From: a bacterium UBP15_UBA6099
GTDB taxonomy: Bacteria; UBP15; UBA6099
NCBI GenBank assembly: GCA_002435745.1
Contig: DIWT01000004.1
Span: 19,096 to 83,095, forward strand
Length of the DNA: 64,000 nucleotides
Reading direction: 5' to 3'
The position numbers and the translations under genes are program-made. The notes below the pieces were generated by a model. That model searched no databases and was not told where the DNA came from. It saw only the letters and a list, made by a program, of their open reading frames with translations. Positions 8,849 to 51,582 of this stretch are shown piece after piece; positions within the stretch are counted from its first letter, which is position 1; each line of letters starts with the position of its first letter.

Positions 8849-8877
8849 TTGACAAAGAATCGATTAATGTCTTAAAT
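8849..8877 (+). promoter_or_regulatory. Candidate sigma-70 promoter (TTGACA-17-TTAAAT) overlapped by an inverted repeat AAGACATT...AATGTCTT, upstream of the precursor-peptide ORF
   Basis: Read directly. The -35 matches consensus 6/6 and the -10 matches 4/6 with a 17-bp spacer. The palindrome arms (8843-8850 and 8865-8872) bracket the spacer, suggesting an operator. Confidence 0.4.
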
Positions 8878-8931
8878 TTTAAGACAGAATAAATGTATGA
8901 AAAATGAAATATAATATAATGGGGGGCTAAA

Positions 8932-9078: not shown

Positions 9079-9189
9079 AATGGTTAGGGAGAACATCAAA
9101 CTGAAATCTTCTTGAAGGAGTGATATACTTTTTTCGAATTTAAATATGAAGGAAAAGAAGTAGCAAAACAGACAGTTAGAACAACTTTA

Positions 9190-12898: not shown

Positions 12899-12899
12899 A

Positions 12900-13475
12900 T
12901 CATAGCGGTTTGTGCCAGTTTTTGTATATGCCGCCGTAAGCGCCGGTGTCGTAGAGGTGGGCGATGACGAGGGCGACGGCGTTTTTGAATCCGGCGTCGC
13001 CGGAGATTGCGAAAGCGAGCGGGCCTGTAGCAGCGGAATAGTAATAGACTACGGACGCATGGGCGTTGTTCGGGACGGATGGGGCGGATATGACCGCCGC
13101 CGGGTCGCCGGGGAGCACGATATTGATTTTTGCTCCGAGAGCTGACGCGATGAATTTTAGCAGGTCGGGTTCGAAGCCGCGCGCGACGCCGTATTCATCC
13201 CTGAAGCACATGGGAGGGCGTTCGCAGTCCACCGCCGCGGCGATGATGCCGGAAGCGCGAGCGGCGCGCAACGTCTCGGAGTCCCCTGCGGCCAGTTCGA
13301 CATCCGCTGCGAGAACGCTTTGCACGGGGTCTCTGGCGGTGGCGGCGGGAACGGTTTCCGAGGGGACGGCGGACGGATCTTGACCCCGGGGGCATCCGGA
13401 AATCAGGACGGCAACTGCCGCCATAACCGCCAGCGCCGACGCGCGTTTCAACCTGTTGTGTTTCGGTTCTATCAT
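12900..13475 (-). CDS. Lipoprotein, solute-binding-protein family 3-like but short (191 aa)
   Basis: Signal peptide plus lipobox (LISGC). DEYGVARGFEPDLLKFIASALGAKINIV and the C-terminal GAYGGIYKNWHKPL resemble the N- and C-lobes of amino-acid ABC transporter SBPs, but the protein is about 70 aa too short. Confidence 0.45.
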   Translation of the reverse strand: MIEPKHNRLKRASALAVMAAVAVLISGCPRGQDPSAVPSETVPAATARDPVQSVLAADVELAAGDSETLRAARASGIIAAAVDCERPPMCFRDEYGVARGFEPDLLKFIASALGAKINIVLPGDPAAVISAPSVPNNAHASVVYYYSAATGPLAFAISGDAGFKNAVALVIAHLYDTGAYGGIYKNWHKPL

Positions 13476-23897: not shown

Positions 23898-23935
23898 CGC
23901 GCAGAAACCGCTTATAGCCGCAGACAGCCGGGTTT

Positions 23936-25237: not shown

Positions 25238-25343
25238 ATTGAGACGCCTGCGCGGTTGCTCGCGCGGGGCAAGTTCCTCTCGAAAAAGGATATACCTAAA
25301 CGCGGCAATCTTCAACGCGCGGGAGCGGGGAGCGGAGCGGCGT

Positions 25344-27206: not shown

Positions 27207-28175
27207 ATGGAATCCGAGCGCCGGGTTGGGTACAATATTCGGCGTATGCGCGAGCCTGTGTATGTCGAAACATATCGAAGCGGCCTGCTGAGAGAGCGGG
27301 TCGAGTCGGCGCGCGAGATTCTCAGGGAGTGCGCGCTGTGCCCGCGCGAATGCGGGGCGGATCGGCTTGCGGGCGAGACTGGGGTATGCCGCGCGGGGGC
27401 GGAGGCGCGCGTCGCAAGTTTTAATCTCCATCATGGCGAAGAGCCGCCCATCTCCGGCTCGAGAGGCAGCGGAACGATCTTTCTATCTCACTGCAATCTC
27501 AGATGCGTGTTCTGTCAGAACTATCCGATCAGCCACATGGGCAACGGGGTTCCAGCCCCGCCGCGCGAACTTGCGGACATGATGCTGAAGCTTCAGAAAC
27601 GCGGCGCGCACAACATTAACTTCGTCACGCCGACCCACTACATGCCGCAGATAATCGAGGCGTTGGAGATAGCCGTCGGGGACGGCCTGCGACTGCCCGT
27701 TGTTTACAACTGCGGCGGATACGAGTCGGTGGAAGCCGTGCGGATGCTGGAGGGGATAGTAGACGTGTATCTTCCGGATATAAAATACAGAAGCGCGGAG
27801 CCAGCCGAAGCGCTGTCGGGCGCGCCGGACTATTTCGAGCGTGCTTGCGCGGCAGTCAAGGAGATGTTCTCTCAGGTCGGCCTGCTGGAGACGGACGAAG
27901 AAGGCGTCGCCGTTCGCGGGCTGATAATCCGGCATCTTGTGTTGCCCGGCGGGCAGGCGGGCAGCAGGGAAGTATTTGAGTTCGTCGCTCGCGAGATTTC
28001 GCCGGATGTCAGCATGAGCGTAATGAGCCAGTATTTTCCGGCGCACGAGGCTCCGCTGAACTCGGCGGTGTCCCGGCGCGTGACGGTCGCCGAATATCAG
28101 GAAGCTCTGGACGCTCTGGAAGAAACAGGATTGACGAAGGGCTGGACGCAGAGCGATCCTGATTTGGAATACTAA
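27207..28175 (+). CDS. Radical SAM protein, PFL-activase-like (AmmeMemoRadiSam-type N-terminal Cys motif)
   Basis: CNLRCVFCQN (Cx3Cx2C) preceded by CALCPRECG and followed by a glycine-rich SAM site. Confidence 0.7.
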   Translation: MESERRVGYNIRRMREPVYVETYRSGLLRERVESAREILRECALCPRECGADRLAGETGVCRAGAEARVASFNLHHGEEPPISGSRGSGTIFLSHCNLRCVFCQNYPISHMGNGVPAPPRELADMMLKLQKRGAHNINFVTPTHYMPQIIEALEIAVGDGLRLPVVYNCGGYESVEAVRMLEGIVDVYLPDIKYRSAEPAEALSGAPDYFERACAAVKEMFSQVGLLETDEEGVAVRGLIIRHLVLPGGQAGSREVFEFVAREISPDVSMSVMSQYFPAHEAPLNSAVSRRVTVAEYQEALDALEETGLTKGWTQSDPDLEY

Positions 28176-29546: not shown

Positions 29547-29840
29547 CTATATATCTTTCAGAGGTTTTGCGCTGTTGCATATAGCGGCAATTTCAACATA
29601 TCCGTCTTTGAGCCGATAGACGATTCTGTAATTTTTAAAAATTCTTTCCCTGATATTTTTATCTTCATATTCTGACAGAGCGCGGCCGGCCAAAGGGAAA
29701 TCCGGAATAGATTCAACGATTGCAATAATGCGTTTTGCGAAAAGAGCCGCATAATATTCGGAGTCTCTGGAAATGAATTCGCAGACGTCTTCAAGATCGG
29801 CAATGGCTCCCGGCGCCCATCTTATTCTTTTGATATCCAT
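29547..29840 (-). CDS. RelE/ParE-family type II toxin
   Basis: 97 aa with a RelE/ParE-like C-terminal half (IVYRLKDGYVEIAAI). It overlaps the upstream small ORF by 19 nt. Confidence 0.65.
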   Translation of the reverse strand: MDIKRIRWAPGAIADLEDVCEFISRDSEYYAALFAKRIIAIVESIPDFPLAGRALSEYEDKNIRERIFKNYRIVYRLKDGYVEIAAICNSAKPLKDI

Positions 29841-30022
29841 TTTGACATCCGTTTCTTGACATCATCATGAGCAATCCCTTTACCCTCTTCCAAGTCCTTC
29901 AAGCCGGAATCAACCTTTATCCTGAAATACAACTCAGCCATAACATCGTCCAATGTCGCGTCATCCGGCAGACGCTCAATGATACTTATCATCTGTTGTT
30001 TTATTCCGACCATTTCAATCAC
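29822..30022 (-). CDS. Putative antitoxin of the RelE/ParE module (66 aa)
   Basis: Small acidic protein immediately upstream of, and overlapping, the toxin gene. The LPDDATLDDVMAELYFR pattern matches addiction-module antitoxin components. Confidence 0.5.
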   Translation of the reverse strand: MIEMVGIKQQMISIIERLPDDATLDDVMAELYFRIKVDSGLKDLEEGKGIAHDDVKKRMSKWISKE

Positions 30023-37664: not shown

Positions 37665-37853
37665 GCCTTCCACTCCCGGGCGGCGAGAGCCGCCGCCGCG
37701 CAATTTTTAACCCGCATTCAAGCCGGAACCGACTCTCTCCGGTTCCGCAACATCAAAGTATTCTATTTGAATTCCATCCCTATATCAACAGGAGATTTAA
37801 ATTTTGCGCATAGCAAATAAAAAAGCGGTTTCCACTATTGCGGACGCATTCAA

Positions 37854-40355
37854 TTATATATCTCCGAAAGAAACGCGGTTGATGATGTCGTCTTGGAGCG
37901 GGCGGCCGAGGTCGGTGAAATAGGCGCTGTAGCCGCTGACGCGCACGAGAAGCCCTCTGTGCGAGTCAGGGTCGAGCTGAGCGGCGCGCAGGGTTTCGTC
38001 GTCCACGACGTTGAATTGGACGTGCATTCCGCCCAGCGAGAAGTACCCTCTCAGCATCGCCTCGAATTTCCGCCGGTTCTCTTCATTTTTAAATACGCCG
38101 GGCATCAGCTTCATGTTCAGGGAACTGCCGTTTGTTATTTTCGAGTGTTCTAAAGAAGCGACGGAGCGCATGACGGCGGTCGGTCCGAGAGATTCCGCGC
38201 CGTTCACGGGCGACAGGCTGTTCGAGACGGGTTGTCCGGCGAGGCGTCCGTCCGGAGTGGCGCCAAGAAGGGAGCCGTCCAGCACGTGCATCCCATAAGA
38301 GAAAAACCCCGGTCTGAACGCGCCGCCTTTGCGGATGGATTTGTGTTTTGCGACTTCTTCGCAGAACATGGCTGCGACCTCGCGGGCCATGGCGTCCGCT
38401 TCGGGGTTGTCGGAGCCGTAGCGCGGCGTTCGGCTCGACAGAAACGCTCTCATTTTCTCGCGGCCTCTGAAATTCGTTTTCAGCGCGGCGGAGAGTTCCT
38501 TCATAGTGTATTTTTTCTCGTCGAAAACGAATTTTTTAATCGCCGTCAGCGAATCGGCGACGGTTCCAAGGCCGCGCGCGCTGATGGAAGCGTAGTTGTA
38601 TTTCGCCCCGCCTTGAGTCATGTCTTCGGCGTTCCTTATGCAGCCTTCGAGGGTGGCGGATATGAATGGATTGTGGAACCCTGCGGCGTAAACTTCGTCT
38701 TTGGCGTTCACGCAGCGGGCGATGTGAGCGACGGTGAAGCTCAACTGCCGCCGAAACGCGTCTAGAAACTGCACGAAGGAGTTGAACTTCGCCGGGTCTC
38801 CCGTGCGCGGGCCGGCGCGGCGGCCCGCCATCCTTATTCTTCCCTGTGTGAAAACCATCTCAAGAACGCCCGCCAGCGAGATGTCGTTGCCGGAGGTGCA
38901 GCCGAAAGTGTTTCCCTGAGACGTCGGCTCCACGCACCCTATTATCGCGTAGTCCCTCGCGTCTTCCGTCGAGCAGCCCAGTTCTTCCAGCATCGGGATT
39001 ATGACATCGTCGTTGAACAGAGCGAGTCCCGACGTGGCCGCGTGGACTTCCGAAATCTTCGCGAGGAATTCCGGGGGCGTCTTAGAACTGACCCGGACGG
39101 AATATGAGTTGCTCATGCCTTCAATATTTTTTACCGCGTCGAGGAATAGGAGGGAGAGTTCGTTTGAGGCGTCCTCGCCGTCCGGGCCTGCGCCGCCGAA
39201 GGTGGGGGCCATGCTGTCCGCGCCCATTTCCGACCCGGAATTTTTTCCGAAAGAGGGCAGGGGAATGAGGTTGACGCTCAATTTGACGAGGAGTTCCTCG
39301 ACGAGTTCGAGCGCGCGGGTCTCGGAGATTGCGCCGGATTCGACATCTTTTTTGTAGAAGGGAAATAGTATTTGGTCTAGCCGTCCGACGGCGCAGATGC
39401 CCGCCAGACCGTAGCTGATTCCGCACATGACCTGAGCGAGCCACAAGGATTGGACGGCCTCGTGGAACGATTCGGGCGGCAGCCACGGCGCGCGGGATGT
39501 GTGCCGGGCGATAAGCCGCAGTTCTTCTCTACGCGCCGGGTCATTCTCGTTCTCCGCCATGCGCGCGGCCAAGTCGGAATATCTTTTTGCGAACATTCGC
39601 GCCGCGTCGCAACAGATTATCGTCGCTTCGAGGAATTTCCGGCCCTCTTCCGTTACGGGCTGTTCGAGTCTGCGCGCCGCCATGTCCCGCAGCCCCTTGA
39701 ACCCGCAACGCGCAACATTGTTGTGACCGATCACAAGATGTCCCTGAGTGTCGAACACGTTGTTCACCATGTTGGGATTGTTCACGGGAAGTTCCGCCGC
39801 CGAGCGGGGCAGAGCGCGCCAGCGCCCTTTTGCGAACACGGACAGGCTTTCCGCCAGCCGGGCCGCTCCGAAGCTTCTGACGAGATCGAACAGCGCGAAC
39901 GGCGTGAAACCCGGCTTGATGATAAGGCCGTCGCGCTCGAAGAGGCGGCGCTTGCCGTCCCGGACGGTCTTTCCTCTCCAATATGGCAGAATGTCGTTCA
40001 GCAACTCTTTTTTGTCGTCGGGGTCGATGCGGTACGGCCTGTCCGGGCGGTTCAGCAGGTTCTCAATGTCCATTTCGAGCACGAGGTTCATCTCCCCGCG
40101 TTCCACGGGAAGCAGCGTTCCGACAAGCGCGCTGTTGTGGTTGCCGGCTATAAGCTCCTCGTCGAGGATGAAAACGGTTTTCTTCCGGAGCGTGTTCTCA
40201 AACGCTTTCGCCGCGCGGATGGAAGGATGTTCCCCTTCCGTCCGGCGGTAGGACTCGGTAACATATCTTGCCCGCTCGACGCAGATAGCGTACTGTTCGT
40301 CGAGAATCCTTTTTCTCAGGCGCTGAGTCCGCGATTTCTCTTCAGCAACCGCCAT
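37854..40355 (-). CDS. Glycyl radical enzyme, PFL2/glycerol-dehydratase-like clade (substrate unknown)
   Basis: The C-terminal glycine-radical motif RVSGYSAYF, the active-site loop IIGCVEP (single Cys, GD-like rather than PFL CC), and a PFL2-type N-terminus. 833 aa. No activase gene is adjacent. Confidence 0.85.
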   Translation of the reverse strand: MAVAEEKSRTQRLRKRILDEQYAICVERARYVTESYRRTEGEHPSIRAAKAFENTLRKKTVFILDEELIAGNHNSALVGTLLPVERGEMNLVLEMDIENLLNRPDRPYRIDPDDKKELLNDILPYWRGKTVRDGKRRLFERDGLIIKPGFTPFALFDLVRSFGAARLAESLSVFAKGRWRALPRSAAELPVNNPNMVNNVFDTQGHLVIGHNNVARCGFKGLRDMAARRLEQPVTEEGRKFLEATIICCDAARMFAKRYSDLAARMAENENDPARREELRLIARHTSRAPWLPPESFHEAVQSLWLAQVMCGISYGLAGICAVGRLDQILFPFYKKDVESGAISETRALELVEELLVKLSVNLIPLPSFGKNSGSEMGADSMAPTFGGAGPDGEDASNELSLLFLDAVKNIEGMSNSYSVRVSSKTPPEFLAKISEVHAATSGLALFNDDVIIPMLEELGCSTEDARDYAIIGCVEPTSQGNTFGCTSGNDISLAGVLEMVFTQGRIRMAGRRAGPRTGDPAKFNSFVQFLDAFRRQLSFTVAHIARCVNAKDEVYAAGFHNPFISATLEGCIRNAEDMTQGGAKYNYASISARGLGTVADSLTAIKKFVFDEKKYTMKELSAALKTNFRGREKMRAFLSSRTPRYGSDNPEADAMAREVAAMFCEEVAKHKSIRKGGAFRPGFFSYGMHVLDGSLLGATPDGRLAGQPVSNSLSPVNGAESLGPTAVMRSVASLEHSKITNGSSLNMKLMPGVFKNEENRRKFEAMLRGYFSLGGMHVQFNVVDDETLRAAQLDPDSHRGLLVRVSGYSAYFTDLGRPLQDDIINRVSFGDI

Positions 40356-40371
40356 GGCTATGCTCCCTTTG

Positions 40372-41958
40372 TCAACATCCCTTTTCGGGGTATCCGGTTA
40401 TCTGCTGCATTTCTCTAAAAATGGGAAGTAATTGCTTGTAAATTTTAGTGTAAACCCGGTCATAGAGGGCGGCATAGAGGGCGACGTTTTCCGGCACAGG
40501 CTCGAAGATGTCGCCGGGGCGGGTCATTGCGGCTACGGCGTCGTCGAAGCTTTTGAAAAAACCGAGGCCGACTGCGGCGACGATGGCGGCTCCGAGAGCT
40601 GAAGTCTCGTGAGTGTGAGGTCTCTGCGCGGGCATCCCGAAGACGTCCGCGCATATCTGCATGGCCGAAGAGCTTTGAGAGCCGCCGCCGGACACGCGCA
40701 ACCCCGTTATTGGAATTTTATTCTTCTTCTCGGTCAGTTGCGCGCCTTCTTTCAGCGCGAACACAAGCCCTTCGAGTATGGCGCGGTAAAGGTGGGCGCG
40801 TTTGTGGAAGTCGCAGAACCCGATGACGGAGCCGCGCGCGCATCGGGCCTTGTCCGGAGCCGGCGTCCAGTACGGCTGGAGCGTCAATCCCATCGACCCC
40901 GGCGGGATGTCCTTTATCAGAGCGTCGAGAAGTTGCTCGGGGGATACCCCTTTGTCGCTCGCTTCGAGGCGCTCCTGAAGCCCGAACTCCTCTTTGAACC
41001 ATGTTATCATCCATGCGCCGCGCAGCACGGCCACTTCGGTATAGTATCGTCCCGGGACCGCCGAAGGATACGGCGGCCAGAAAGGTTTTAATTCCACATA
41101 CCTGTCGTTCATCGTGTTGATGGTGGAAATGGTTCCGAAACTTATGCAGGCGTTTTCAGGGGACACGCAACCGGCGCCGAGAATTTCGCACGCTTTGTCG
41201 TTTGCCGCGGCGATTACCGGAAGTCCTGCGGGGATCCCGGTTTCTTCAGCCGCTTTCCGCGAGATATGGCCCAGCAACCCGGTCGGCGCGATCAGATCGG
41301 GCAGTTTTTCAAGCTCGATCGGGAACAACCTGTGCTTCGGATCGAACCGTCCTGCCCACCGGCCTTTTTTGATGCTGAACGGCACATAGCCGACTATGCT
41401 GCCGCTTGAATCCACGAACTCGCCTGTCAGCTTGAGCGCGAACCATCCTGACAGGTATATGTGTTTATGGACGCGCTTCCAGATTTCCGGCTGATTCTGG
41501 CGAATCCAGTTCGATTCGCAATCGCGGATCGCGCCCTCTATGAGCTCTTCGTATTTAACCGCTTTCAGCAACGGACGGAAGACTGAAGGGATGATGTTGC
41601 CGGAGTCGGATTTGCGCTCGTCCAGCCAGACGATTGCCGGACGGAGCGGAACTCCGTTCTTATCGACGTCGATAAGCGTGTTCCGTTGAGTGGCAACCGC
41701 GACGCCTTTGATCGCTTCTTTCGATTCAATGTTCCTTTCGAGAAGCTTTTCGCAAGAGCGGCACAACATTTCCCAGAAATATTCCGGCCGTTGTTCCGCC
41801 CACCCCGGTTGCGGAGAGCAACAAAGCTCGATGGGCGTCTTCACCATGTCGCGGATATTGCCGTCGAAGTCAATCAGCGCGGCCCGTATCGATTGCGTTC
41901 CCGCGTCGATTGCGAGCGCCAGTTCCGTTTTTCCAATCCCTTTTCCAGCCATGACCAC
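40372..41958 (-). CDS. FGGY-family carbohydrate kinase, copy A
   Basis: N-terminal ALAIDAGTQSIRAAL (the FGGY phosphate-1 motif) and the C-terminal ATP-binding block GGGSQSSSAMQICADVFG. Confidence 0.8.
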   Translation of the reverse strand: MVMAGKGIGKTELALAIDAGTQSIRAALIDFDGNIRDMVKTPIELCCSPQPGWAEQRPEYFWEMLCRSCEKLLERNIESKEAIKGVAVATQRNTLIDVDKNGVPLRPAIVWLDERKSDSGNIIPSVFRPLLKAVKYEELIEGAIRDCESNWIRQNQPEIWKRVHKHIYLSGWFALKLTGEFVDSSGSIVGYVPFSIKKGRWAGRFDPKHRLFPIELEKLPDLIAPTGLLGHISRKAAEETGIPAGLPVIAAANDKACEILGAGCVSPENACISFGTISTINTMNDRYVELKPFWPPYPSAVPGRYYTEVAVLRGAWMITWFKEEFGLQERLEASDKGVSPEQLLDALIKDIPPGSMGLTLQPYWTPAPDKARCARGSVIGFCDFHKRAHLYRAILEGLVFALKEGAQLTEKKNKIPITGLRVSGGGSQSSSAMQICADVFGMPAQRPHTHETSALGAAIVAAVGLGFFKSFDDAVAAMTRPGDIFEPVPENVALYAALYDRVYTKIYKQLLPIFREMQQITGYPEKGC

Positions 41959-41990
41959 GCCTTTTAGGAATGACCGCGCATCCTGCCGGG

Positions 41991-43694
41991 TCAGGTTCCG
42001 CTCTTGCCTTTCAGCGCGAGTTGCCCGCCGGGGTTCATTATGTTGTTCGGGTCGAAATGCGTTTTAAGAGCGCGGAGCGCGTCCATCTGCGTTTTTCCCA
42101 GATGCTCTTCCATCCAAGGAGACAGCAGTTTTCCGACTCCGTGATGGTGGCTCAACGAGCCTCCGTTTTCAACAATTGCGCTAACGATTTTGCTGTGAAC
42201 TTCGTTGTATTCTTCCGGTCTTTCCGGTTTCAGCACGAAAATGAAATACAGGTTGGTTCCATTCGGATAGAAATGAGACGCGTGGGTCATGCAGATTGAG
42301 CCGGGCCTGCTTTTCACGACAGCCCGAACCTCTTTGTGAAGCCGCAGCAGGTTGTCCCATGTCACGGCTGATTCCAGCGTGTCCGTCACTATGCCGAAGT
42401 CCAGAAAATCCTCCCGCATCAGCGGCTCCTTGTAGCGGGTTTTCTCCCACGCCTTCACAACCACCGCCGGAAGCTTCATCGCTCCGTTCGCGCGACACAC
42501 TTTTCCTATGCTTTTCTTCACATGTTTCGCGTATCCCTTCTCTCCCTCCACCGTTCCCATGCACACGCACCTGCTCATCGGCTTCATTACCCGAGCCGAC
42601 ATGAACTTTTCGAAATATGCGTTGTCGAACCCGTACAATTTCAGCCCCCTGTCGGTTTCCTCAGGGTCGGAAATTCTGTAAACCGCAGGCAACCCGAACT
42701 CGGACTGCATGATCTCTCTCGAAGCGTTGACAGCCGACTCCCACGATGGGAACATGAAAGCGAAATACTGCCTGTTTTCCGGCATGAAGCGGAATATTTT
42801 CATCGTGATTTCCACAAGCGCTCCGAAAGCGCCCTCGCTGCCTTTCATGATGTCGTTCAGTTTCGGGCCTGTGGCGGTCGCGGGATATTCCAGCGTTTTG
42901 AAAGTCCCCGCCGGGGTGACGTATTCCTGCGAGATCGCTAGGTGGTAGGCGTCTCCATAATACGTGGAAGCCTGCCCGGATCCGAGCGCGGCTATCCAGC
43001 CGCCGACGGACGACATCTCGAACGATTGAGGAAAATGCCCGCATGTGTATCTTCGGGCGGTCTTGAACATCTGAGGCGCGTTGTTCAGCGCCGCCTCGAA
43101 ATCAGGCCCCATCATGCCCGGTTGAACCGTCGCCGTCTGGTTCGCCTCGTTGATGTTAAGCAGCTTGTTCATGTGGGTCTTCATAACAAGCGTCACGCCG
43201 CCCTTTTCCGGCGCGATTCCCATTACCACGGAGGATCCTCCGCCATAGACGCAAATCGGTATTCTATGCTTATCGCAGTATTCGACAATGCGGCGGACGT
43301 CGTTCTTGTCTCTAGGATGAACCACCGCATCGGCGACATTCCGGGGCCTGTTCATGCGCAGATCCATCACTTCTTTCATCGTCTGCCCGTGGCTGTATTT
43401 TACGCGGTCGTAGTCGTCAGCCGACACGTTTTCAGAGCCGACAATTGCTTTAAGCGCGTTTATATGCTCGTCGTTTAAACCCGGTTTTCCGCCCAACGAG
43501 ACCTTCTCGTTTCCTTCGTTCTGTTTACGAGAAAAATATTCTTCCGTGACGCCGAATTCGGACATCATCATCTCCACAAGCTCGGCGCGAGGATGCTTGA
43601 ACTCGTTCGGCTCGCCGAACTTAAAAATGGAACGGTACGATCCCGGTTCGGGAGCCCGCTCCGTCCAATCCGGCGTGAATTTTTTTCCAGACAT
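41991..43694 (-). CDS. FAD-linked oxidase (PCMH-type FAD-binding domain, alkyl-DHAP synthase/D-lactate dehydrogenase-like)
   Basis: The FAD-binding region VVHPRDKNDVRRIVEYCDKHRIPICVYGGGSSVV and the C-terminal HHHGVGK motif typical of the VAO/PCMH family. 567 aa. Confidence 0.7.
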   Translation of the reverse strand: MSGKKFTPDWTERAPEPGSYRSIFKFGEPNEFKHPRAELVEMMMSEFGVTEEYFSRKQNEGNEKVSLGGKPGLNDEHINALKAIVGSENVSADDYDRVKYSHGQTMKEVMDLRMNRPRNVADAVVHPRDKNDVRRIVEYCDKHRIPICVYGGGSSVVMGIAPEKGGVTLVMKTHMNKLLNINEANQTATVQPGMMGPDFEAALNNAPQMFKTARRYTCGHFPQSFEMSSVGGWIAALGSGQASTYYGDAYHLAISQEYVTPAGTFKTLEYPATATGPKLNDIMKGSEGAFGALVEITMKIFRFMPENRQYFAFMFPSWESAVNASREIMQSEFGLPAVYRISDPEETDRGLKLYGFDNAYFEKFMSARVMKPMSRCVCMGTVEGEKGYAKHVKKSIGKVCRANGAMKLPAVVVKAWEKTRYKEPLMREDFLDFGIVTDTLESAVTWDNLLRLHKEVRAVVKSRPGSICMTHASHFYPNGTNLYFIFVLKPERPEEYNEVHSKIVSAIVENGGSLSHHHGVGKLLSPWMEEHLGKTQMDALRALKTHFDPNNIMNPGGQLALKGKSGT

Positions 43695-43756
43695 ATTGTC
43701 CTCCCATTTTTATCGCGCGTTTTCTGTCTTGTGTCCGTCGCCATCAACCCGCGGGC

Positions 43757-45403
43757 TTACCGCGGGATCTCGAACATTTTTTTCGCGTCCGCGACTTCCT
43801 TCGATTTGCGCGAATCGTCCCAGCAGAGTTCCTTCGCCGCCACATCCGCCACGGCGTCGACGACCGCGTCGCCCGGATCCCCCATCGTGCCAAGTCCCGT
43901 CCTGCGGAATAGGATGTCCTTCAGCGTCAGCGCCATTTCCTCCCGGATCGCGTAAACAGCCTGCGCGGCGATTTCGCCATCCGCGTTCAATGGCGTCGCA
44001 AGAGCGTTGTTCTGACGTCCTATGCTCAGCAATTTGTCGATTTCCGTTCCATAGTATTTTCCTAGACATTCAATCGTTTCATTCTTGAAATCCGCGTTGG
44101 CCGTTTTCTTCTCAGCGAGAAAAGCGTTCATATCTTTTATTTCGCATCCGGCTAGATACTGTTTGTCCGTGACGCATTTCGTTTCCTTCAAATTTAATTT
44201 CCGCGAGACCATTTTCATCACGTTTTGCGCAAGGTTGCGGCTTGTCGTATATTTGCCGCCCTCGACGGTGATCAACCCGGAAAGGCTGTCATTAGCGTTG
44301 TCGTATATCTCGTACCGCCGGGACGACTCCCGAACGGATTTCTTTTTATCTTCAAGAAGAGGGCGCAGACCGCCGTAAGCGCGCTCCACATCATCGTAGC
44401 CGATCCGCTCCTCTCCGCGCATCGCGTCGTTCGCCATTCCGATTAATTCCATTATCGCTTCTCGCGTCACCATGTAGTCGTCGGGGTTTCCCTCGTAATC
44501 CTTGTCGGTGGGGCCAATCAACGTTCTTCCTCTCCACGGGGTCATCACGAACCCGCCGCCGGAGGAAGTCACCATCGCCAACATCCCATTCAGGACGGGC
44601 TTCTTCGTTATTATGTGAATTCCTTCCGATCTCCTGATGCGACGCGATCCGCTTTCGCCTCTCGCCGCGTCCAGTATCAGGTCCGCCCAAGGCCCGCCGC
44701 AGTTGATCGTCAACTTGCTCCTCAATTCCACGTTTCTTCCGGTTGTCAGGTCTTTTACGTTCACGCCCGCGATCCGTTTTCCGTCTCCGGCTGCGGAATA
44801 AATAAATCCTTCGACTTTGCTGTAATTGGAAACGCGCGCTCCGCTTTTAACCGCCGACTTCACGAACGCCAAGGTCAGCCGCTCCGGAAAAATGCTCGCG
44901 CAGTCGTAATAAGAAAAAGCTCCTTTGAATCCGTTCCGCGGAATCGACGGTTCCATCTCCAGCGCTTTCGCCGCCGGAACCGCCTTATGGAAACCTATGC
45001 TTTTGCTCTTGTCCCAAGTGCGCCCTTTGTCGAAAGAAAGAGAATCGTACAGCATCATCCCCAGCCTTATCGCCCATGTGTGTTTAGTTATTCCCTGCTT
45101 GTAGCACGGGACCATCACCCGAATAGGATAGACTAGGTTCGGAGCGATGTTCTCCAGAGTCCGACGTTCTTTCAGAGATTCCCGCACTATGCCGAACTCA
45201 AGGTTGGCAAGATATCTGAATCCGCCGTGGATCAGCTTTGAAGTGGCTGCGGAAGTGGCGCATCCGAAATCGTTTTTCTCCAAAAGAGCCACAGACAGTC
45301 CTCTCGATGCCGCGTCATAAGCCACCGCCGCTCCGGTGATTCCTCCGCCTATCACCGCAACGTCGAACTCTCCTGTGTTTGGGTCTTCAATGAACCTTTT
45401 CAT
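43757..45403 (-). CDS. glpA: FAD-dependent glycerol-3-phosphate dehydrogenase (GlpA/GlpD family)
   Basis: FDVAVIGGGITGAAVAYDAASRGLSVALLEKNDFGCATSAATSKLIHGGFRY is the classic GlpD/GlpA N-terminal FAD fold. 548 aa. Confidence 0.8.
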   Translation of the reverse strand: MKRFIEDPNTGEFDVAVIGGGITGAAVAYDAASRGLSVALLEKNDFGCATSAATSKLIHGGFRYLANLEFGIVRESLKERRTLENIAPNLVYPIRVMVPCYKQGITKHTWAIRLGMMLYDSLSFDKGRTWDKSKSIGFHKAVPAAKALEMEPSIPRNGFKGAFSYYDCASIFPERLTLAFVKSAVKSGARVSNYSKVEGFIYSAAGDGKRIAGVNVKDLTTGRNVELRSKLTINCGGPWADLILDAARGESGSRRIRRSEGIHIITKKPVLNGMLAMVTSSGGGFVMTPWRGRTLIGPTDKDYEGNPDDYMVTREAIMELIGMANDAMRGEERIGYDDVERAYGGLRPLLEDKKKSVRESSRRYEIYDNANDSLSGLITVEGGKYTTSRNLAQNVMKMVSRKLNLKETKCVTDKQYLAGCEIKDMNAFLAEKKTANADFKNETIECLGKYYGTEIDKLLSIGRQNNALATPLNADGEIAAQAVYAIREEMALTLKDILFRRTGLGTMGDPGDAVVDAVADVAAKELCWDDSRKSKEVADAKKMFEIPR

Positions 45404-45424
45404 GCGCTTCGCCTCAATTCGCGA

Positions 45425-46153
45425 TTATTCCGCTTGAATATTCGCGATCGTTTTGAATAGTTCCTGCTCGGCGCGTATATACATAGCCAGAGCTTTCTGT
45501 CGGGCTTGTTCGAAGTCCTTATTCTTTATCGCGTCGAACATTTCGCGATGATAGACTTCCGTATTTCGCGCGTTCTTCTCGACGTCGTAATACAGGTAGG
45601 CGTAATCCCTCAACAGCCCGGTGAACGCGTTGAGCAGGATGACGAAAAAGGCGTTTCCGCCGGCTCTCGCGATGATGTTGTGAAATCGCCAATCCTTTTC
45701 CGCCATAGGCATTTCGCCGCTTTCGAAGACTATTTTTTCGAGGGCTTGCAGGTCTTTCTCCGATCTGTTCCGCGCGGCGAGGCTTGCCATTTCAGGCATA
45801 AGGATTATTCTCAGTTCGGAGAGATTTCTTAATATGCCGACATCCGGAGTTCCGTCCCTGATCAACAACTGTTTTGCCAGTTCCAAGCTTCCGCTTTCGA
45901 GATAATCCCTGACGTAAACGCCGTCTCCATGCCTGATTTCCACAAGTTCCATGCTTTCTAATTTGTTAAGCGCCTCGCGCAATGTGGAACGGTTCACGTT
46001 CATAGCATCAGCAAGCTCGCGCTCGGGAGGAAGCTTGGCTCCGGCGGGAATCTGTCTGGAAATAATCTTGTTCTTGAGTTGTTCGGCGATTCCCTCGTGA
46101 AGTCTGACGCGTTGAGGCGGAACGAAGAGAGAGGAGTTATTATCGCGAGTCAT
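45425..46153 (-). CDS. GntR-family transcriptional regulator (FCD-type C-terminal domain)
   Basis: The winged-helix block LPPERELADAMNVNRSTLREALNKL plus the helical FCD-like C-terminus. Confidence 0.75.
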   Translation of the reverse strand: MTRDNNSSLFVPPQRVRLHEGIAEQLKNKIISRQIPAGAKLPPERELADAMNVNRSTLREALNKLESMELVEIRHGDGVYVRDYLESGSLELAKQLLIRDGTPDVGILRNLSELRIILMPEMASLAARNRSEKDLQALEKIVFESGEMPMAEKDWRFHNIIARAGGNAFFVILLNAFTGLLRDYAYLYYDVEKNARNTEVYHREMFDAIKNKDFEQARQKALAMYIRAEQELFKTIANIQAE

Positions 46154-46329
46154 GATGAGACATCCCCGGCGGGCGTTTAATTGGTACGGTGGCCCGACCA
46201 ATTAATCATGCGCTTTTTCTGCGGCCTTGTCAACTTTTTTAATTTGTATATTCCCGTAGGGGCGCAAAAGCGCAAGAAAGGTATCTAGCAAGACGAGTTC
46301 TTCAAGAGCATCTCGCTCTAGTTTAATCC

Positions 46330-47910
46330 TCATCCGCCTTCTTCGGGGTATCCGGTTATCTGTTGCATTTCTTTGAAAATGGGAAGCAATTGTTTGTAGA
46401 TTTTCGTGTAAACACGGTCGTAGAGGGCGGAGTACAGGGAGACGTTTTCCGGCACAGGCTCGAAGATGTCGCCGGGGCGGGTCATGGCGGCTACGGCGTC
46501 GTCGAAGCCGTTGAAAAAGCCGAGACCGACTGCGGCGTCGATGGCGGCTCCGAGAGCTGAAGTCTCGTGAGTGTGGGGTCTCTGCGCAGGCATCCCGAAC
46601 ACGTCCGCGCATATCTGCATGGCCGAAGAGCTTTGAGAGCCGCCGCCGGACACTCGCAGCCCCGTTATTGGGATTTTGTTTTTTTTCTCCGTGAGTTGAG
46701 CGCCTTCTTTCAGCGCGAACACAAGCCCTTCGAGTATGGCGCGGTAAAGGTGGGCGCGTTTGTGGAAGTCGCAGAACCCGATGACGGAGCCGCGCGCGCT
46801 TCGGTCTTTGTCGGGGGTTGGCGTCCAGTACGGCTGGAGCGTCAGCCCCATCGACCCCGGCGGGATGTCCTTTATCAGAACGTCTAGGAGTTGCTCAGGA
46901 GCGACGCCTTTTTCGCTTGCTTCGAGGCGCTCCTGAAGCCCGAACTCTTCTTTGAACCACGTTATCATCCACGCGCCGCGCTGCACCGCCACTTCGGTGT
47001 AAAAGCGTCCGGGGACTGCGGACGGATACGGAGGCCACAGAGGCTTCAACTCCACATATTTATCGTTCATCGTGTTTATTGTTGATATGGTTCCGAAGCT
47101 GACGCAGGCGTTTTCGGGGGACACGCAACCCGCGCCGAGAATCTCGCAAGCCTTGTCATTAGCCGCCGCGATGACCGGAAGCCCGGCGGGAATGCCTGTT
47201 TCTTCAGCCGCTTTCCTCGTGATATGGCCCAACAGGCCCGTCGGCTTCACGAGGGTCGGGAGTTTTTCTCGCTCGATGGGGAACAGCAGAGATTTCGGGT
47301 CGAACTTTCCGGCCCACTCGCCTTTTTTAGCGCTGAACGGCGTGTAACCGACGATGCTGCCGCTTGAGTCCGAGAACTCGCCTGTCAGCTTGAGATTGAA
47401 CCATCCTGACAGGTAGATGTGTTTGTGGACGCGCGCCCAGATTTCCGGCTGATTCTGTCGGATCCAGTTCGATTCGCAGTCCCGGACGGCTCCGTCTATG
47501 AGAGTGTGGAGGCCGAGCATTTTGAGAGGGAGGCGGAGCGCGGCAGGGAGCGCGCCTCGGGAGTCCGCCTTGCGCTCGTCGAGCCAGACTATTGCCGGGC
47601 GGAGCGGCGCGCCGTTCATGTCCACGTCTATCACTGTGTTGCGTTGCGTCGTCACCGCCACGCCCCGGATGGCGTCCTTGCTCTCTGATGTTTTCGCGAA
47701 CAGCCCGGCGCACGCGGTCCGCAGAATGTCCCAGAAGTATTCCGGGTCCTGCTCGGCCCAACCGGGCTGCGGCGAATGGCACAGGCGCATCGGCGTCTTG
47801 ACGATGTCCCTGATTTCGCCGTCGAGATCGATTAGAGCCGCCCTTATCGACTGTGTCCCGGCGTCTATCGACAGTATGAGATCGGATTTGCTCTTTTCGC
47901 TCTTTCCCAT
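46330..47910 (-). CDS. FGGY-family carbohydrate kinase, copy B (recent paralog of 40372-41958)
   Basis: Near-identical protein and DNA over the C-terminal two-thirds, for example the identical GLRVSGGGSQSSSAMQICADVFGMPAQRPHTHETSALGAAI block. The N-termini diverge. Confidence 0.8.
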   Translation of the reverse strand: MGKSEKSKSDLILSIDAGTQSIRAALIDLDGEIRDIVKTPMRLCHSPQPGWAEQDPEYFWDILRTACAGLFAKTSESKDAIRGVAVTTQRNTVIDVDMNGAPLRPAIVWLDERKADSRGALPAALRLPLKMLGLHTLIDGAVRDCESNWIRQNQPEIWARVHKHIYLSGWFNLKLTGEFSDSSGSIVGYTPFSAKKGEWAGKFDPKSLLFPIEREKLPTLVKPTGLLGHITRKAAEETGIPAGLPVIAAANDKACEILGAGCVSPENACVSFGTISTINTMNDKYVELKPLWPPYPSAVPGRFYTEVAVQRGAWMITWFKEEFGLQERLEASEKGVAPEQLLDVLIKDIPPGSMGLTLQPYWTPTPDKDRSARGSVIGFCDFHKRAHLYRAILEGLVFALKEGAQLTEKKNKIPITGLRVSGGGSQSSSAMQICADVFGMPAQRPHTHETSALGAAIDAAVGLGFFNGFDDAVAAMTRPGDIFEPVPENVSLYSALYDRVYTKIYKQLLPIFKEMQQITGYPEEGG

Positions 47911-47943: not shown

Positions 47944-49077
47944 TTATTTTGAGACGGTGTATGACGAGGCGGCGAGCCGCGCGCGGGTCAGCCCTGTTAT
48001 GTCAACGAAACTGTAGTGGTCCAACTGCTTGTTCCTCAACACGCCGGTGTGGGCGAAGACGATAAACTCGGTCAACGGCTGTTTCCCCGGCCACAGTTTT
48101 CTTTTAACTTTAAATAGAGCGTGGGAATCTCTGATTTCGCAGACCACTGAAGAAACGTCCTCCGTCGGAATGCCGTCCCGGTTGATTATGACCGCGCACG
48201 GCTGAGCGATCCCCGAAACCGAATAGCCGAGGGGCAGCAGCCGGACGAGAGCGCCGTCGAGCGGCAGTCCCTGTTCGGGGTCGGGCGCGGAGGACGCTGG
48301 GTTCATCACAGTAACCGCGTACTGGTTGAGCGCGATGGGGGTCAGGCTTCCGGTCGAGATTTCACCTTGCACCGTGATGTCGAAATAAAGCCAGTTGGAG
48401 TCGTATCCCATGCGGAAGTCGAGGATGTCGAAGTCCTCGCCCGCTCTTGAAGGCGGGTCGTCCACCGGCGTCTCTTCTTCGCCAAGAGCGAACATGCAGC
48501 CTCTGGGCCGCCTGTTTTCGAGGCATTCGGCGAAGGGCCGCTTGGCAAACTCGTCGCAGTCCTGTTTGAAGTAGGCGGCGGAGGGCGGCCACGAGGACTG
48601 AGCGCACGCAAGGTCAGCCAGAGTTCCGCTCTTTTCATTCCGCGCCCGGAATGCGGTTAAGACTTTCGCGCCCGCGGACCTGCCGGGAAGGGACGCTAAC
48701 ATCCGCCCGCGTTCTTTCGCCGGGGCCAGTTCCGAAACGTCCCAAGTTTTGCCGCCGTTGGCGCTGTGAAAAACGCTCGCGGAATCCATCTTGAGCGGGA
48801 CGGCGGACACGTGGGCGAATGTCGCGCCGAGGATGGCGGGTTTCTTGGGAGCGGGCGGAGACGGGTCGAACTCAGGCGTCGTGGCGGAGGGCAGGGGGAT
48901 GTCTTTTAAAAACAATATGTGCCTGTGTTTCAACTGGGAGGGGATGAGAACGACCGCGTCTGGGTCAAAGTCGCCGGCAGCCGGGGGCGTCTGCGCGGTC
49001 AGGGGCGCGCATATAATAACGGACAGAATGAAGGAGGCTATCGCCACTGTCGATTTTTGGCGTTTTTTTTCAGGCAT
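47944..49077 (-). CDS. Secreted hypothetical protein (signal peptide)
   Basis: The N-terminus KKRQKSTVAIASFILSVIICAPLTAQ is a signal peptide. I recognise no family. Confidence 0.45.
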   Translation of the reverse strand: MPEKKRQKSTVAIASFILSVIICAPLTAQTPPAAGDFDPDAVVLIPSQLKHRHILFLKDIPLPSATTPEFDPSPPAPKKPAILGATFAHVSAVPLKMDSASVFHSANGGKTWDVSELAPAKERGRMLASLPGRSAGAKVLTAFRARNEKSGTLADLACAQSSWPPSAAYFKQDCDEFAKRPFAECLENRRPRGCMFALGEEETPVDDPPSRAGEDFDILDFRMGYDSNWLYFDITVQGEISTGSLTPIALNQYAVTVMNPASSAPDPEQGLPLDGALVRLLPLGYSVSGIAQPCAVIINRDGIPTEDVSSVVCEIRDSHALFKVKRKLWPGKQPLTEFIVFAHTGVLRNKQLDHYSFVDITGLTRARLAASSYTVSK

Positions 49078-49122: not shown

Positions 49123-50556
49123 TCACAACAAGGATTTTCCATCAACGCCGGGCGTTTCAAACCCCATGATTTTGCCGATTGTCGGAACGATGTCCACGAT
49201 GCTCGCGCCGCGGACGGTGGAGTCCGGAATGCCGGGGCCTGAGACCGCGAACGGGACCGCGGAGTCCAATATATGAAGCCCGCCGTGCTCGCCCGCTTTC
49301 GGTTTGTCCCCGAAGTAATAACCTTTTCGGCAATCGAGAAGAACCATCATGTCGCCGCAACGGGAGCAGTTCACGCCTTTTAGTCGGCGGACTGCGTCGG
49401 GATACTCAGATTCCTTGCCGGAGAAGAAGTTTTCGAGGGAAACGAGGGAGCCGCCGGAGAATACTTCGTAGTCCGCGCCGAAGCCGCGTCTTACGAGAAC
49501 GATGTCGACGAATGGCATCTGACCATTTTTTAATTTCTCGAAAGCGGCGGCGGCGGGGAGCGTGTCGCGCTCGAAGTCCGGCTCGTCCGCCCAGCGCCCT
49601 GTTTGCCTGTTCTTAAGGTGAACCTGAGCCGTGAACGCCTCCGTGCATATCACCGCGGTGTCCGCGTCGCGCACCGTTTTTTTGTCGAACAGATCGAACC
49701 CGCCGCCGGGAACGCCCTTCATAACTTCCGCCAGCATTTCGTTGGTTGCGATGTGGGTCTTCTCTCGCACGGTCTTGGCTTGGCAGTGATCCGCCGCCAG
49801 CAGAAAATGGAATTCTTCGAGCGGCCGGTTTTTTTCAAGCTCGGCGATGAACAGCCCGAAAAGCGGATCCACGATTGAGCGGTAGTAGTCGTTCTGAGTG
49901 TCCGGGCCGTGTTCGTGGCTGCTGTTGTCGTGGCCGGAGATGTAGAACACCGTCAGGTCGGGCAGCGGGTTCTTCCGCATGTCCCGGAAGAGGTGTTTGA
50001 ACGTCGCCTTGTCCCAATGTTTGTTATGGACAAGCTCTTCGTGGCAGAGCGCGAAAAGAATCATCTCCGGCCGGGTCGGCTTAATCCATTTGCCAACGCC
50101 CCGGCTTATCTGATTGAACACCTGCCATGAATCCAGCCCGGCGGCGGCGGCGAACTGGTAAACTGTTTTGATGTCGGCGGCCATGTCGTTGTTCGCGTAT
50201 TGGAGCTGGGGCCGTTGCGGCAGGATTATTGTGGGCCAGCCGACAAGGCCGAACCCGTAGACCCCGGCGGCGGTGGCCGCCGTAGTGTACCTCCGGTACA
50301 TCAGCGGGTCGCTGTGGCGGTCAAACCAACTGTTGCCTATGATGCCGTGCCTGCCGGGGAACACGCCCGTGAACATCGAGGGCTGGCAGGAGAGGGTGAC
50401 GGCGGGGAAGACGGCGGACGCTGTTTCCGCCCTCAGCCCGGTCCCGGCTATCCGGGACGTGTTGGTCGTCTTGTCGTCGAGCGCCGCGTACAGCACATCG
50501 GGATGAATCCCGTCGATGTCTATCATTATTAATTGTTTGCGCGAGTTGTCTGTCAT
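49123..50556 (-). CDS. Alkaline-phosphatase-superfamily protein (type I phosphodiesterase/nucleotide pyrophosphatase-like)
   Basis: LIMIDIDGIHPDVLY is the AlkP-core metal-ligand Asp region, and the GHDNSSHEHGPDT block carries His/Asp ligands. Confidence 0.6.
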   Translation of the reverse strand: MTDNSRKQLIMIDIDGIHPDVLYAALDDKTTNTSRIAGTGLRAETASAVFPAVTLSCQPSMFTGVFPGRHGIIGNSWFDRHSDPLMYRRYTTAATAAGVYGFGLVGWPTIILPQRPQLQYANNDMAADIKTVYQFAAAAGLDSWQVFNQISRGVGKWIKPTRPEMILFALCHEELVHNKHWDKATFKHLFRDMRKNPLPDLTVFYISGHDNSSHEHGPDTQNDYYRSIVDPLFGLFIAELEKNRPLEEFHFLLAADHCQAKTVREKTHIATNEMLAEVMKGVPGGGFDLFDKKTVRDADTAVICTEAFTAQVHLKNRQTGRWADEPDFERDTLPAAAAFEKLKNGQMPFVDIVLVRRGFGADYEVFSGGSLVSLENFFSGKESEYPDAVRRLKGVNCSRCGDMMVLLDCRKGYYFGDKPKAGEHGGLHILDSAVPFAVSGPGIPDSTVRGASIVDIVPTIGKIMGFETPGVDGKSLL

Positions 50557-50596: not shown

Positions 50597-51166
50597 TTAG
50601 AACCCTCGTTTTATGGATGAATCAGGCATCGAACGCCTGACGGAATCCTCGGCGTTCTCTCCTGCGTTAGCCGGATGCAGGTCCCAGTATGCGACGGCTC
50701 CGCCTTTAAGATTGAATACGTAGTTGAAGCCCGCTTTCCTCATTCTGGCCGCCGGTTCAACGCTCTCGTCTCCCTTTTCAGACACCACGATGTAATCCGC
50801 GTTCGGGTCCATGTCGGAAAGAGCCTCGTCAAGCTCGTCGTCGGGAATGTTTATCGAGTCCGGGATGAGCGGCGCGCCGCTCCAGATATCATCCGGGTCC
50901 CTGATGTCGATGATCACCGCGCCTCTGGAGACCATGCCTTCCACTTCTTCGGCGCGCACTGAATACACCGCGCGACCGACGACCTCTTTAGGCTTCCTGT
51001 CGTCCGCGTCATCTTTGTAATCGCCGGAATCGCGCTCGGACTCCGAATTGGCGGAAGCTGGAGCCTGTGGTTTCGCGCCTCTGCTGCAACCCGGCGCGAA
51101 CGCCCCGGCGGTCAGAAGCAATGCCAACGCCAAAGCCGGCAATGCCATGCGCTTCTTTGTGTTCAT
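50597..51166 (-). CDS. Rhodanese-domain lipoprotein
   Basis: The start is MNTKKRMALPALALALLLTAGAFAPGCS (lipobox) with a GGAGGTG RBS. The rhodanese fold is GAVIIDIRDPDDIW...YIVVSEKGDESVEPAARMRKAGF. The track ORF upstream of 51166 is probably a read-through artefact. Confidence 0.65.
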   Translation of the reverse strand: MNTKKRMALPALALALLLTAGAFAPGCSRGAKPQAPASANSESERDSGDYKDDADDRKPKEVVGRAVYSVRAEEVEGMVSRGAVIIDIRDPDDIWSGAPLIPDSINIPDDELDEALSDMDPNADYIVVSEKGDESVEPAARMRKAGFNYVFNLKGGAVAYWDLHPANAGENAEDSVRRSMPDSSIKRGF

Positions 51167-51582
51167 CGGCCACCTCCGGTTATTGACACATTGTAACTGT
51201 GCGGGGCCAAACAAGCAAAGGGGCGGAGACGGGAACCGAGCGAAAAAAGTCGACACTGAAGGCAATCTCGGACCGCACCAGCGCGTCGCGGGCAACCAAG
51301 CAATTATTCGACATAACAAAACAGACATAATCGGCGCGGTCGGCGCGCATGGTTTTTCATGCGGGCGCAACAAATGTTGCAGTCGGAGCGATGGGCGCGC
51401 AAACGCTAAATAACGCAACATAAAATATGTTTCTACAAATATCGGTTAAATCAAGGCGCTTTTTAGGATAGAAACCGCGCCCGGCGGAAGAGCCGATTTG
51501 TGGGCTGAAATCACTTTTGGTAAAAAATGTTGCAAATTGTCGGATGCTATATTAGATTAAAATACTATAGATAGAGAGGCTC

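Follow-up and report, generated by a model that had tools for sequence, protein, structure and literature searches.

We analysed a stretch of 64,000 nucleotides (hereafter the window) from the bacterium UBP15_UBA6099 (assembly GCA_002435745.1, contig DIWT01000004.1, positions 19,096 to 83,095 of the forward strand), with a focus on a glycyl radical enzyme (GRE) gene and the kinase, flavoenzyme and regulator genes that precede it. All of these genes lie on the minus strand. In the order of reading, they encode a FGGY kinase (FGGY2, 46330-47910), a GntR/FCD regulator of the FadR type with 242 amino acids (45425-46153; Pfam GntR, FCD and FadR_C, the last at 35 bits), a GlpD/GlpO-type FAD dehydrogenase of 548 amino acids (43757-45403; Pfam DAO and DAO_C), an AGPS-like FAD flavoenzyme of 567 amino acids (41991-43694; Pfam FAD_binding_4 and FAD-oxidase_C), a second FGGY kinase (FGGY1, 40372-41958; Pfam FGGY_N and FGGY_C), and the GRE of 833 amino acids (37854-40355; Pfam PFL-like and Gly_radical). 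FGGY1, which is also a gene call in contig L001, likely starts at 41952, giving 526 amino acids, and forms a direct repeat with FGGY2, likewise assigned by Pfam. An initial annotation of this DNA had listed a GRE, two FGGY kinases, a FAD oxidase, a dehydrogenase and a GntR regulator, and the Pfam assignments bore out this inventory.

A widespread operon around an AGPS-like flavoenzyme

The neighbourhoods of AGPS-like genes were compared at 84 loci, and cassette genes were counted at 30 metagenomic loci with enough flanking sequence. The results showed that the order GntR, GlpD-like, (DUF362), AGPS-like, FGGY recurs in many anaerobes, including Desulfobacterota, Syntrophia and others. GlpD-like, FGGY, GntR and DUF362 genes were the recurrent neighbours among the 84 loci, and the GlpD-like gene was present at 22/30 flanked loci, FGGY at 19/30 and GntR at 19/30. 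At a subset of the cassette loci, the GlpD-like gene was accompanied by Pyr_redox_2 and DUF1667 proteins. The AGPS-like homologues are 63-77% identical across Desulfobacterota, Syntrophia and unclassified metagenome-assembled genomes (MAGs). Judged by gene order, gntR, the glpD-like gene, the AGPS-like gene and FGGY1 are a widespread canonical operon, with FGGY1 as its cognate kinase and last member. We found no description of an AGPS/FGGY/GlpD cluster in the literature, and papers on bacterial AGPS homologues list them only as ether-lipid markers.

The regulator gene, separated from FGGY2 by a 128-bp gap, most likely starts at the ATG at 46153 and not at 46201, up to which the frame is open. 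A consensus scan detected a promoter-like site of the form TTGACA-17-CATGAT on the minus strand, overlapped by a perfect palindrome, TTAATTGGT-N11-ACCAATTAA, which is a candidate GntR operator (46177-46233 for the two together). A palindromic box of the TTGGTCGGACCACCCGACCAA type lies at 46177-46205 in the window, at 4061-4081 in locus L090, and also in L105, L118, L119, L133, L172 and others. Upstream of gntR, such a box was found in 11/30 other cassette loci with at most one mismatch, about 8 of them clearly of the identical type. Autoregulated catabolic operons of the FadR/GntR kind have the same winged-helix GntR domain with FCD/FadR_C, and a palindromic TGGT...ACCA operator over the -10 element is likewise found here, whereas the sequence of the operator, TTGGTCGGRCCACCSKACCAA, is peculiar to the cassette family described here. 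Since its order is conserved in many genomes and it has its own promoter and operator, the cassette is probably a self-contained unit, autoregulated via the palindromic operator over its promoter. The TTGGTCGGACCACCCGACCAA-type box offers a ready regulon marker for the AGPS-like operon family in divergent organisms.

The best solved relative of the AGPS-like enzyme was AGPS of Dictyostelium (2uuu), at 249 bits against 94 bits for D-lactate dehydrogenase. The equivalents of R419, R515, Y578 and H615-617 of mammalian AGPS are all kept (vyRisD, lmRedf, tnlYfif and slsHHHgvg, with the loop SHHHGVG), so that the protein unites VAO-type FAD domains with the catalytic residues of AGPS. The combination of FAD_binding_4, FAD-oxidase_C and an N-terminal extension is common to it and to the AGPS proteins of Dictyostelium (2UUU), mammals (4BBY) and Myxococcus xanthus (MXAN_1676). 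The best match and the conserved catalytic residues together indicate AGPS-type chemistry on a derivative of dihydroxyacetone phosphate (DHAP). Known AGPS genes act with, or adjoin, genes for a fatty-acyl reductase and a DHAP acyltransferase (PMC13012113), whereas the partners here are the GlpD-like enzyme, the FGGY kinase, a FadR-type regulator and sometimes DUF362. Neither the reductase nor the acyltransferase family recurs among the 84 loci.

The dehydrogenase scored 310.8 against the GlpD model PRK12266, just under the cutoff of 360, and contains both DAO and DAO_C. Its best PDB matches were 3da1, 2rgh and 2qcu, all of them glycerol-3-phosphate dehydrogenases or oxidases. GlpA was rejected, with a score of 181.7 against 552.8 for TIGR03377 and no GlpB or GlpC genes in the window's cassette, and the label GlpA in the initial annotation should be replaced by GlpD/GlpO-like. 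The best NCBIfam model for the kinase was the xylulokinase XylB, at 256.7 against a cutoff of 380.25, with GlpK at 143.7 against 590.35, and alignments of the kinases to solved FGGY kinases gave no substrate clue.

From these family memberships, the FGGY kinase would make an ester of the glycerol-3-phosphate type, the GlpD-like flavoenzyme would oxidise this ester to the DHAP level, and the AGPS-like enzyme would carry out an AGPS-type substitution at C1 of the DHAP derivative, in ether- or ester-lipid-related chemistry. The FadR_C match of the regulator fits lipid-related control. Erythritol catabolism by EryA and EryB follows the logic of a kinase with a FAD dehydrogenase. The pairing of a FGGY kinase with a GlpD-family flavoprotein in glpK-glpD and EryA/EryB suggests phosphorylation followed by oxidation beside the phosphate ester. 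Unlike the operon described here, glpK-glpD and EryA/EryB have no counterpart of the AGPS-like enzyme, and the kinase and dehydrogenase of the window score below the equivalog cutoffs.

The glycyl radical enzyme and its activation

The GRE scored 534.9 bits with PFL-like (PF02901) and 102 bits with Gly_radical (PF01228), which places it in the GRE superfamily. The single-Cys GCVEP loop and the RVSGYSA glycyl motif reported in the initial annotation were confirmed, at G473-C474-V-E476-P and R805-V-S-G808-Y-S-A, respectively. C474-V475-E476 is invariant among 31 clade members, and a C-X-E sequence in the Cys loop is the feature by which the 1,2-eliminase and isomerase classes of GREs are defined (PMC13450708). 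The enzyme fell below all NCBIfam equivalog cutoffs, by about 2-fold. Its best PDB scores were 457 bits for glycerol dehydratase (GD), 436 for propanediol dehydratase (PD), 433 for HpsG, 425 for HypD and 407 for CutC, followed by 382-405 for IslA/IseG and 331-390 for YbiW/PflD/HplG, so that the CXE enzymes, whose scores span 347-457 bits by clade, are roughly equidistant from it. Sequence identity is about 35% to each of the characterised enzymes GD, PD, HypD, HpsG/HpfG, CutC, IslA and YbiW/PflD. Hundreds of environmental proteins, 50-67% identical to the GRE, reached 930-1285 bits and make up its own clade; the enzyme belongs to none of the characterised clades.

The clade includes Asgard archaea (Frey-, Atabey-, Jord-, Thor-, Hel- and Hodarchaeia), Desulfobacterota with the cultured Desulfatibacillum alkenivorans, Myxococcota, Planctomycetota, Syntrophomonadaceae and Methanolliviera, and two motifs, GCVEPTSxGNTFGCTSGND and FRPGFFSYGMH, are invariant within it and peculiar to it. 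By motif and score, the GRE is a member of a large CXE-type clade without a characterised enzyme. According to a 2026 review, whole GRE clades and all archaeal PFL-like GREs have no assigned function (PMC13450708). By analogy with other CXE enzymes, the substrate would most likely be a small molecule with a hydroxyl group and, on the carbon next to it, a leaving group.

We compared the GRE with each of the characterised classes. It shares the fold, the domains, the C-X-E loop and the RVSGY loop with the B12-independent GD of Clostridium butyricum (1R8W/1R9D), whose His164 is kept as H206, whereas Asp447 is replaced by S488, His281/Ser282 by A318/G319 and Tyr640 by F685. GD and PD were rejected on the Asp447 and His281/Ser282 replacements and on a TIGR01774 score of 590.6 against the cutoff of 678.2. 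The C-S lyases (IslA, IseG, HpsG) and HpfG were rejected with scores of 529.7 (NF048011) and 523 (NF048009) against a cutoff of 1000. Arg672 of HpsG, the only position of the Arg/Gln/Arg sulfonate anchor that was aligned, corresponds to G683. CutC scored 455.3 against 1050, and HypD 511.5 against 1100.

Public records name members of this clade "Benzylsuccinate synthase alpha subunit" (ADurb.Bin236), "formate C-acetyltransferase" (JGI) and "pflD" (an Asgard genome paper, PMC11291895). A pyruvate formate-lyase (PFL) or a benzylsuccinate synthase (BSS) alpha subunit would accord with these names and with the many clade members from hydrocarbon-associated taxa (Desulfatibacillum, Smithella, Methanolliviera). 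We nevertheless consider such an identity highly improbable. The catalytic pair described for PFL is C418/C419, whereas the GRE has a single Cys followed, one residue on, by Glu in GCVEP, and the PFL model TIGR01255 gave 113.6 against 994.2. The X-succinate synthases (BSS/ASS) were likewise rejected, with 247-250 bits to 4pkc/9o8u (BSS/MASS) compared to 457 bits to GD, and no ORF (open reading frame) for a BSS/ASS small subunit adjoins the GRE in the ORF list and Pfam matches of the window. All three public names thus conflict with the C-X-E Cys loop and with the scores.

A pattern scan of GTDB species genomes gave 191 matching stretches that encode relatives of the GRE, of which 80 were kept, including a more distant Loki-type subgroup at 37-39% identity. 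Neighbourhoods were counted at 65 clade loci outside the window's genus, 28 of which are flanked on either side by 5 kb or more. When 1,059 ORFs from the GRE loci were clustered all against all, no family was found in more than 11 loci, and outside the genus the GRE has no recurrent neighbour. The 11-locus family is enoyl-CoA hydratase-like and is concentrated beside the GREs of the Loki-type subgroup, with scattered copies elsewhere. Radical SAM proteins of the B12 type were found near five GREs, too few to carry meaning. In the Promethearchaeota loci L080 and L082-L089, whose GREs are 37-39% identical to that of the window, one to three enoyl-CoA-hydratase-like genes and recurrent small families flank the GRE. 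This suggests a conserved acyl-CoA-linked context in the Promethearchaeota subgroup, which is missing from the window's clade.

The initial annotation had called the GRE an orphan of its activase, and a tblastn search of the 64-kb window with three bona fide activases found no canonical GRE activase, the hallmarks of which are GPGxR, CX3CX2C and a ferredoxin-like insert. The search gave only a match of 15-49 residues at the CX3CX2C motif of a radical SAM protein on the plus strand (27207-28175, 322 amino acids, with CNLRCVFC and a Cys-rich N-terminal stretch). The only other ORFs in the window with CX3CX2C are 9124-10500 and 5946-7907; the latter, on the minus strand, encodes a 654-amino-acid B12-binding radical SAM protein, the third radical SAM gene of the window and unrelated to GRE activation. 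The protein at 27207 has no ferredoxin insert and no relative in the PDB, and among NCBIfam models (E<=0.001) it matched NrdG2 only, weakly at 23.9 bits, with no match to the AmmeMemoRadiSam or GRE-activase models. The genes around it encode a GNAT acetyltransferase, a thioredoxin and a Mur ligase, and not the AMMECR1 or Memo partners of an AmmeMemoRadiSam enzyme; its synteny is kept in relatives. The tblastn search and the model scan upheld the earlier view that it is not a GRE activase, while its description as AmmeMemo-type did not hold.

The lack of an adjacent activase is usual for this clade, in contrast to GD and other CXE-type GREs. An activase adjoins the GRE at 3/65 clade loci outside the genus, and at 1/28 of those with the longer flanks. 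The activases at the three exceptional loci are of the textbook type and lie directly downstream of the GRE, in distant clade members. Because three clade members carry textbook activases, activation in this clade is expected to follow the conventional route, in trans. For the window's GRE, the activase would be encoded beyond the window. A profile of the three clade-linked activases was run against a set of 5.8 billion proteins, and the 8000 scored candidates were all generic, none of them assignable to this organism.

The kinase pair and the 5,958-bp unit

FGGY1 and FGGY2 share 85% protein identity and 80.5% DNA identity. The DNA identity rises from 63% over the first 450 nt, where third codon positions are 28-52% identical, to 92-94% over the last ~500 nt. 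By the Nei-Gojobori method, synonymous divergence (dS) was 2.47, 0.88 and 0.31, and nonsynonymous divergence (dN) 0.27, 0.077 and 0.025, in the 5', middle and 3' third of the gene, respectively. The longest exact run common to both genes is 100 nt, and 300 nt of the repeat are ~91% identical. Homology is limited to the coding sequence, with a copy-to-copy spacing of 5,958 nt and an intervening stretch of 4.37 kb (41959-46329). The initial annotation correctly placed two minus-strand FGGY kinases as direct repeats around a 4.4-kb segment, and its figure of ~90% identity was too high. The recent segmental duplication that it proposed is refuted, because the homology ends with the kinase coding sequence and dS is high.

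When compared with 43 other cassette kinases, FGGY1 and FGGY2 were mutual closest relatives, with an N-terminal identity of 79% to each other and at most 66% to the others. Each has an ortholog at 92-94% in a sister genome, and both L010 and L011 show a mosaic of diagnostic sites in the 3' third. By these comparisons, the kinase pair is an old lineage-specific duplication, older than the split of the sampled populations. In FGGY2, the 5' part, encoding the substrate domain, has diverged to saturation, while gene conversion has kept the 3' part, encoding the ATP domain, similar.

Close relatives differ in the number of kinases. In "bacterium ADurb.Bin236" (L011), whose GRE is 93% identical to that of the window, the order is a rhodanese, a phosphodiesterase, a 377-amino-acid protein, one kinase, the GRE and secD. 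This single-kinase state was found in ADurb.Bin236 and in at least four further independent assemblies, one of them a 419-kb contig, and the two-kinase state in the window contig, a 76-kb ENA contig, a TPA MAG (HOC93148-93153) and L010. The ADurb.Bin236-type single kinase is of the FGGY2 type nearly throughout, as an FGGY2 ortholog, with its last ~45 nt and the C-terminus EKGC from FGGY1. Comparison with L011 by blastn and a map of diagnostic sites placed both junctions at the 3' ends of the kinase genes, in their last ~50-90 nt. They delimit a presence/absence unit of ~5,958 bp (~40412-46370) that comprises the FGGY2 3' tip, gntR-glpD-AGPS, and FGGY1 minus its 3' tip. The earlier suggestion of a recombination-prone cassette was borne out by these relatives, in which one kinase directly precedes the GRE and the unit is lacking. 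Homologous recombination across the direct repeats has led to gain or loss of the unit among sister populations.

The genes upstream of FGGY2 in the window are the same as in the single-kinase relatives, with synteny kept. On the minus strand, they encode a rhodanese-domain lipoprotein (50597-51421, with its true start probably further downstream), a cytoplasmic phosphodiesterase of the alkaline-phosphatase superfamily (49123-50556) and a secreted 377-amino-acid protein without a family (47944-49077), which had no Pfam match even at E<=10. Rfam and tRNA scans of the window gave no match, indicating that no riboswitch or integration-site tRNA is involved.

Relation between the operon, the kinases and the enzyme

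The GRE gene begins 16 nt after the FGGY1 stop codon, and a Shine-Dalgarno sequence of its own, GGGAG, precedes its ATG by 7 nt. A terminator-like hairpin with a T-run, a pattern match from a consensus scan and the sequence, lies just past the GRE stop codon (37824-37836, minus strand), and in the consensus scan no such site separates FGGY1 from the GRE. The hairpin is followed, at 37788-37760 on the minus strand, by a promoter-like site for secD, likewise a pattern match only. The housekeeping genes secD, secF, recJ and relA lie downstream of the GRE. In this genus, the GRE is probably co-transcribed with the preceding kinase.

We consider it fairly likely that three separable things adjoin at this locus: an autoregulated operon, an old kinase paralog, and a GRE that stands alone elsewhere. 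The initial annotation had instead seen the set as possibly one undescribed pathway. The GRE, the kinases, and the GlpD-like and AGPS-like enzymes would then serve one anaerobic route for three-carbon polyols or polyol phosphates, with the GRE acting on the substrate or product of the kinase, for example dehydrating a phosphorylated glycerol derivative by radical chemistry or cleaving a C-O bond in it. The operon-like layout, with its 16-nt gap and a terminator-like hairpin only past the GRE, speaks for such a pathway, as does a kinase of this family directly before the GRE in both the one- and two-kinase configurations. Moreover, YbiW and PflD are a precedent for CXE-type GREs that take phosphorylated sugar derivatives as substrates and break C-O bonds (PMC13450708). 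Against this, none of the 65 clade loci outside the genus has a FGGY, GlpD-like or AGPS-like gene within 10 kb of the GRE, and the cassette, which has a promoter and operator of its own, forms a complete unit in many genomes without including a GRE. Any GRE was found near the AGPS-like gene at only 2/84 loci (L092 and L095), which is about chance level. Both of these GREs belong to other clades and differ from that of the window in their Cys-loop and substrate-strand sequences. Since the association is gone beyond the genus, a single pathway is improbable.

The adjacency could also have arisen if the cassette were a recently acquired foreign island, brought in by Campbell-type recombination of its own kinase with a resident solo kinase beside the GRE. 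The single-kinase state would then be ancestral, and GRE and cassette would be neighbours only because the cassette happened to integrate there. Other phyla widely carry the cassette, at the 63-77% identity given above, the junctions lie inside the kinase 3' ends, and GC content at third codon positions (GC3) is lower in the cassette (GntR 0.60, GlpD 0.645, AGPS-like 0.68, 5' FGGY1 0.64-0.70) than in the flanking genes (0.72-0.79) and 5' FGGY2 (0.77-0.78). However, the sister relationship of FGGY1 and FGGY2 among 45 kinases is unexpected for a cassette from a distant donor, and even the converted part still has a dS of 0.3 or more, which speaks against a very recent event. The identical chimera is predicted whether the unit was integrated or excised, so that the change may have run in either direction, and we regard a foreign island as possible, though doubtful. 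It is very unlikely that the repeat has produced the one- or two-kinase arrangement as an artefact of metagenome assembly. In favour of an artefact, short-read contigs (Logan, JGI) repeatedly break off 141-473 nt upstream of the GRE, within the 3' repeat of the kinases. Each configuration, however, recurs in several independent assemblies and samples, including contigs of 76, 104 and 419 kb, and an exact run of 100 nt with ~91% identity over 300 nt is too little for collapse at k=141. The assemblies of contigs L001-L006, which are identical to the window, are fragmented by the kinase paralog repeat.

Several points weigh against three separable parts and against the chemistry set out for the operon. 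In each of the three sister genomes, a kinase of this family precedes the GRE by 16 nt, so that some functional coupling in the genus is possible. The low GC3 of the cassette hints at acquisition, while the sisterhood of the kinases hints at an ancestral two-copy state. In known ether-lipid synthesis, AGPS works with an acyltransferase and a fatty-acyl reductase, neither of which is encoded in the cassette, and the nearest NCBIfam model of the kinase is xylulokinase, below its cutoff, and not glycerol kinase. The substrate of the operon would follow from family membership and residue conservation only, and activation of the GRE in trans is an assumption, as the profile search did not recover the organism's activase.

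A more novel proposal, to which we give little chance, is that the operon serves oxygen-independent handling of glycerol ether or ester lipids in anaerobes. Phosphorylation of a 1-O-alkyl-glycerol, a 1-acyl-glycerol or glycerol itself by the kinase would be followed by oxidation to alkyl- or acyl-DHAP by the GlpD-like enzyme, and the AGPS-like enzyme would exchange or release the C1 chain. If true, ether lipids would be cleaved without oxygen, or ester lipids converted to ether lipids without a DHAP acyltransferase. In a still bolder version, the CXE-type GRE of this genus may have been recruited to the same substrates, by analogy with its relatives YbiW and PflD, which cleave C-O bonds of phosphorylated substrates.

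Further features were observed elsewhere in the window. A 35% GC island (8100-12900) in the 55-60% GC contig encodes a 193-amino-acid protein without a family name, a radical SAM protein (~9190-10503) and an 800-amino-acid SNF2 helicase. The radical SAM protein has a Cys-rich C-terminal tail and a core that weakly matches pVip models, and the helicase half of the SNF2 protein matches the DpdE and ZorD defence models at 299 and 271 bits. The island looks horizontally acquired and is possibly defence-related. An unusually GC-rich stretch (21591-26000, 65-67%) encodes an 862-amino-acid protein whose only domain match is to spermine synthase and a 459-amino-acid product without a Pfam match, and has long ORFs overlapping on both strands. 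A ParE-toxin gene of 97 amino acids with an overlapping upstream 63-amino-acid ORF, the presumed antitoxin, lies on the minus strand at 29547-30013, between relA and the thioredoxin gene according to the gene calls of contigs identical to the window.

The GRE clade is broad, spanning Asgard archaea, Desulfobacterota, Myxococcota and Planctomycetota, and its members are routinely labelled pflD or benzylsuccinate synthase. Given the eliminase/isomerase Cys loop, formate- or hydrocarbon-linked metabolic reconstructions that include them are probably wrong. The kinase repeat is an ordinary but clean case of gene conversion between paralogs and of an operon that sister populations have gained or lost by way of a repeat. 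The AGPS-like operon is strongly conserved and has a conserved operator, and we found no published function for it. Ether-lipid metabolism of anaerobic bacteria is poorly understood, and because all AGPS catalytic residues are kept, the operon is a concrete candidate for a part in it.

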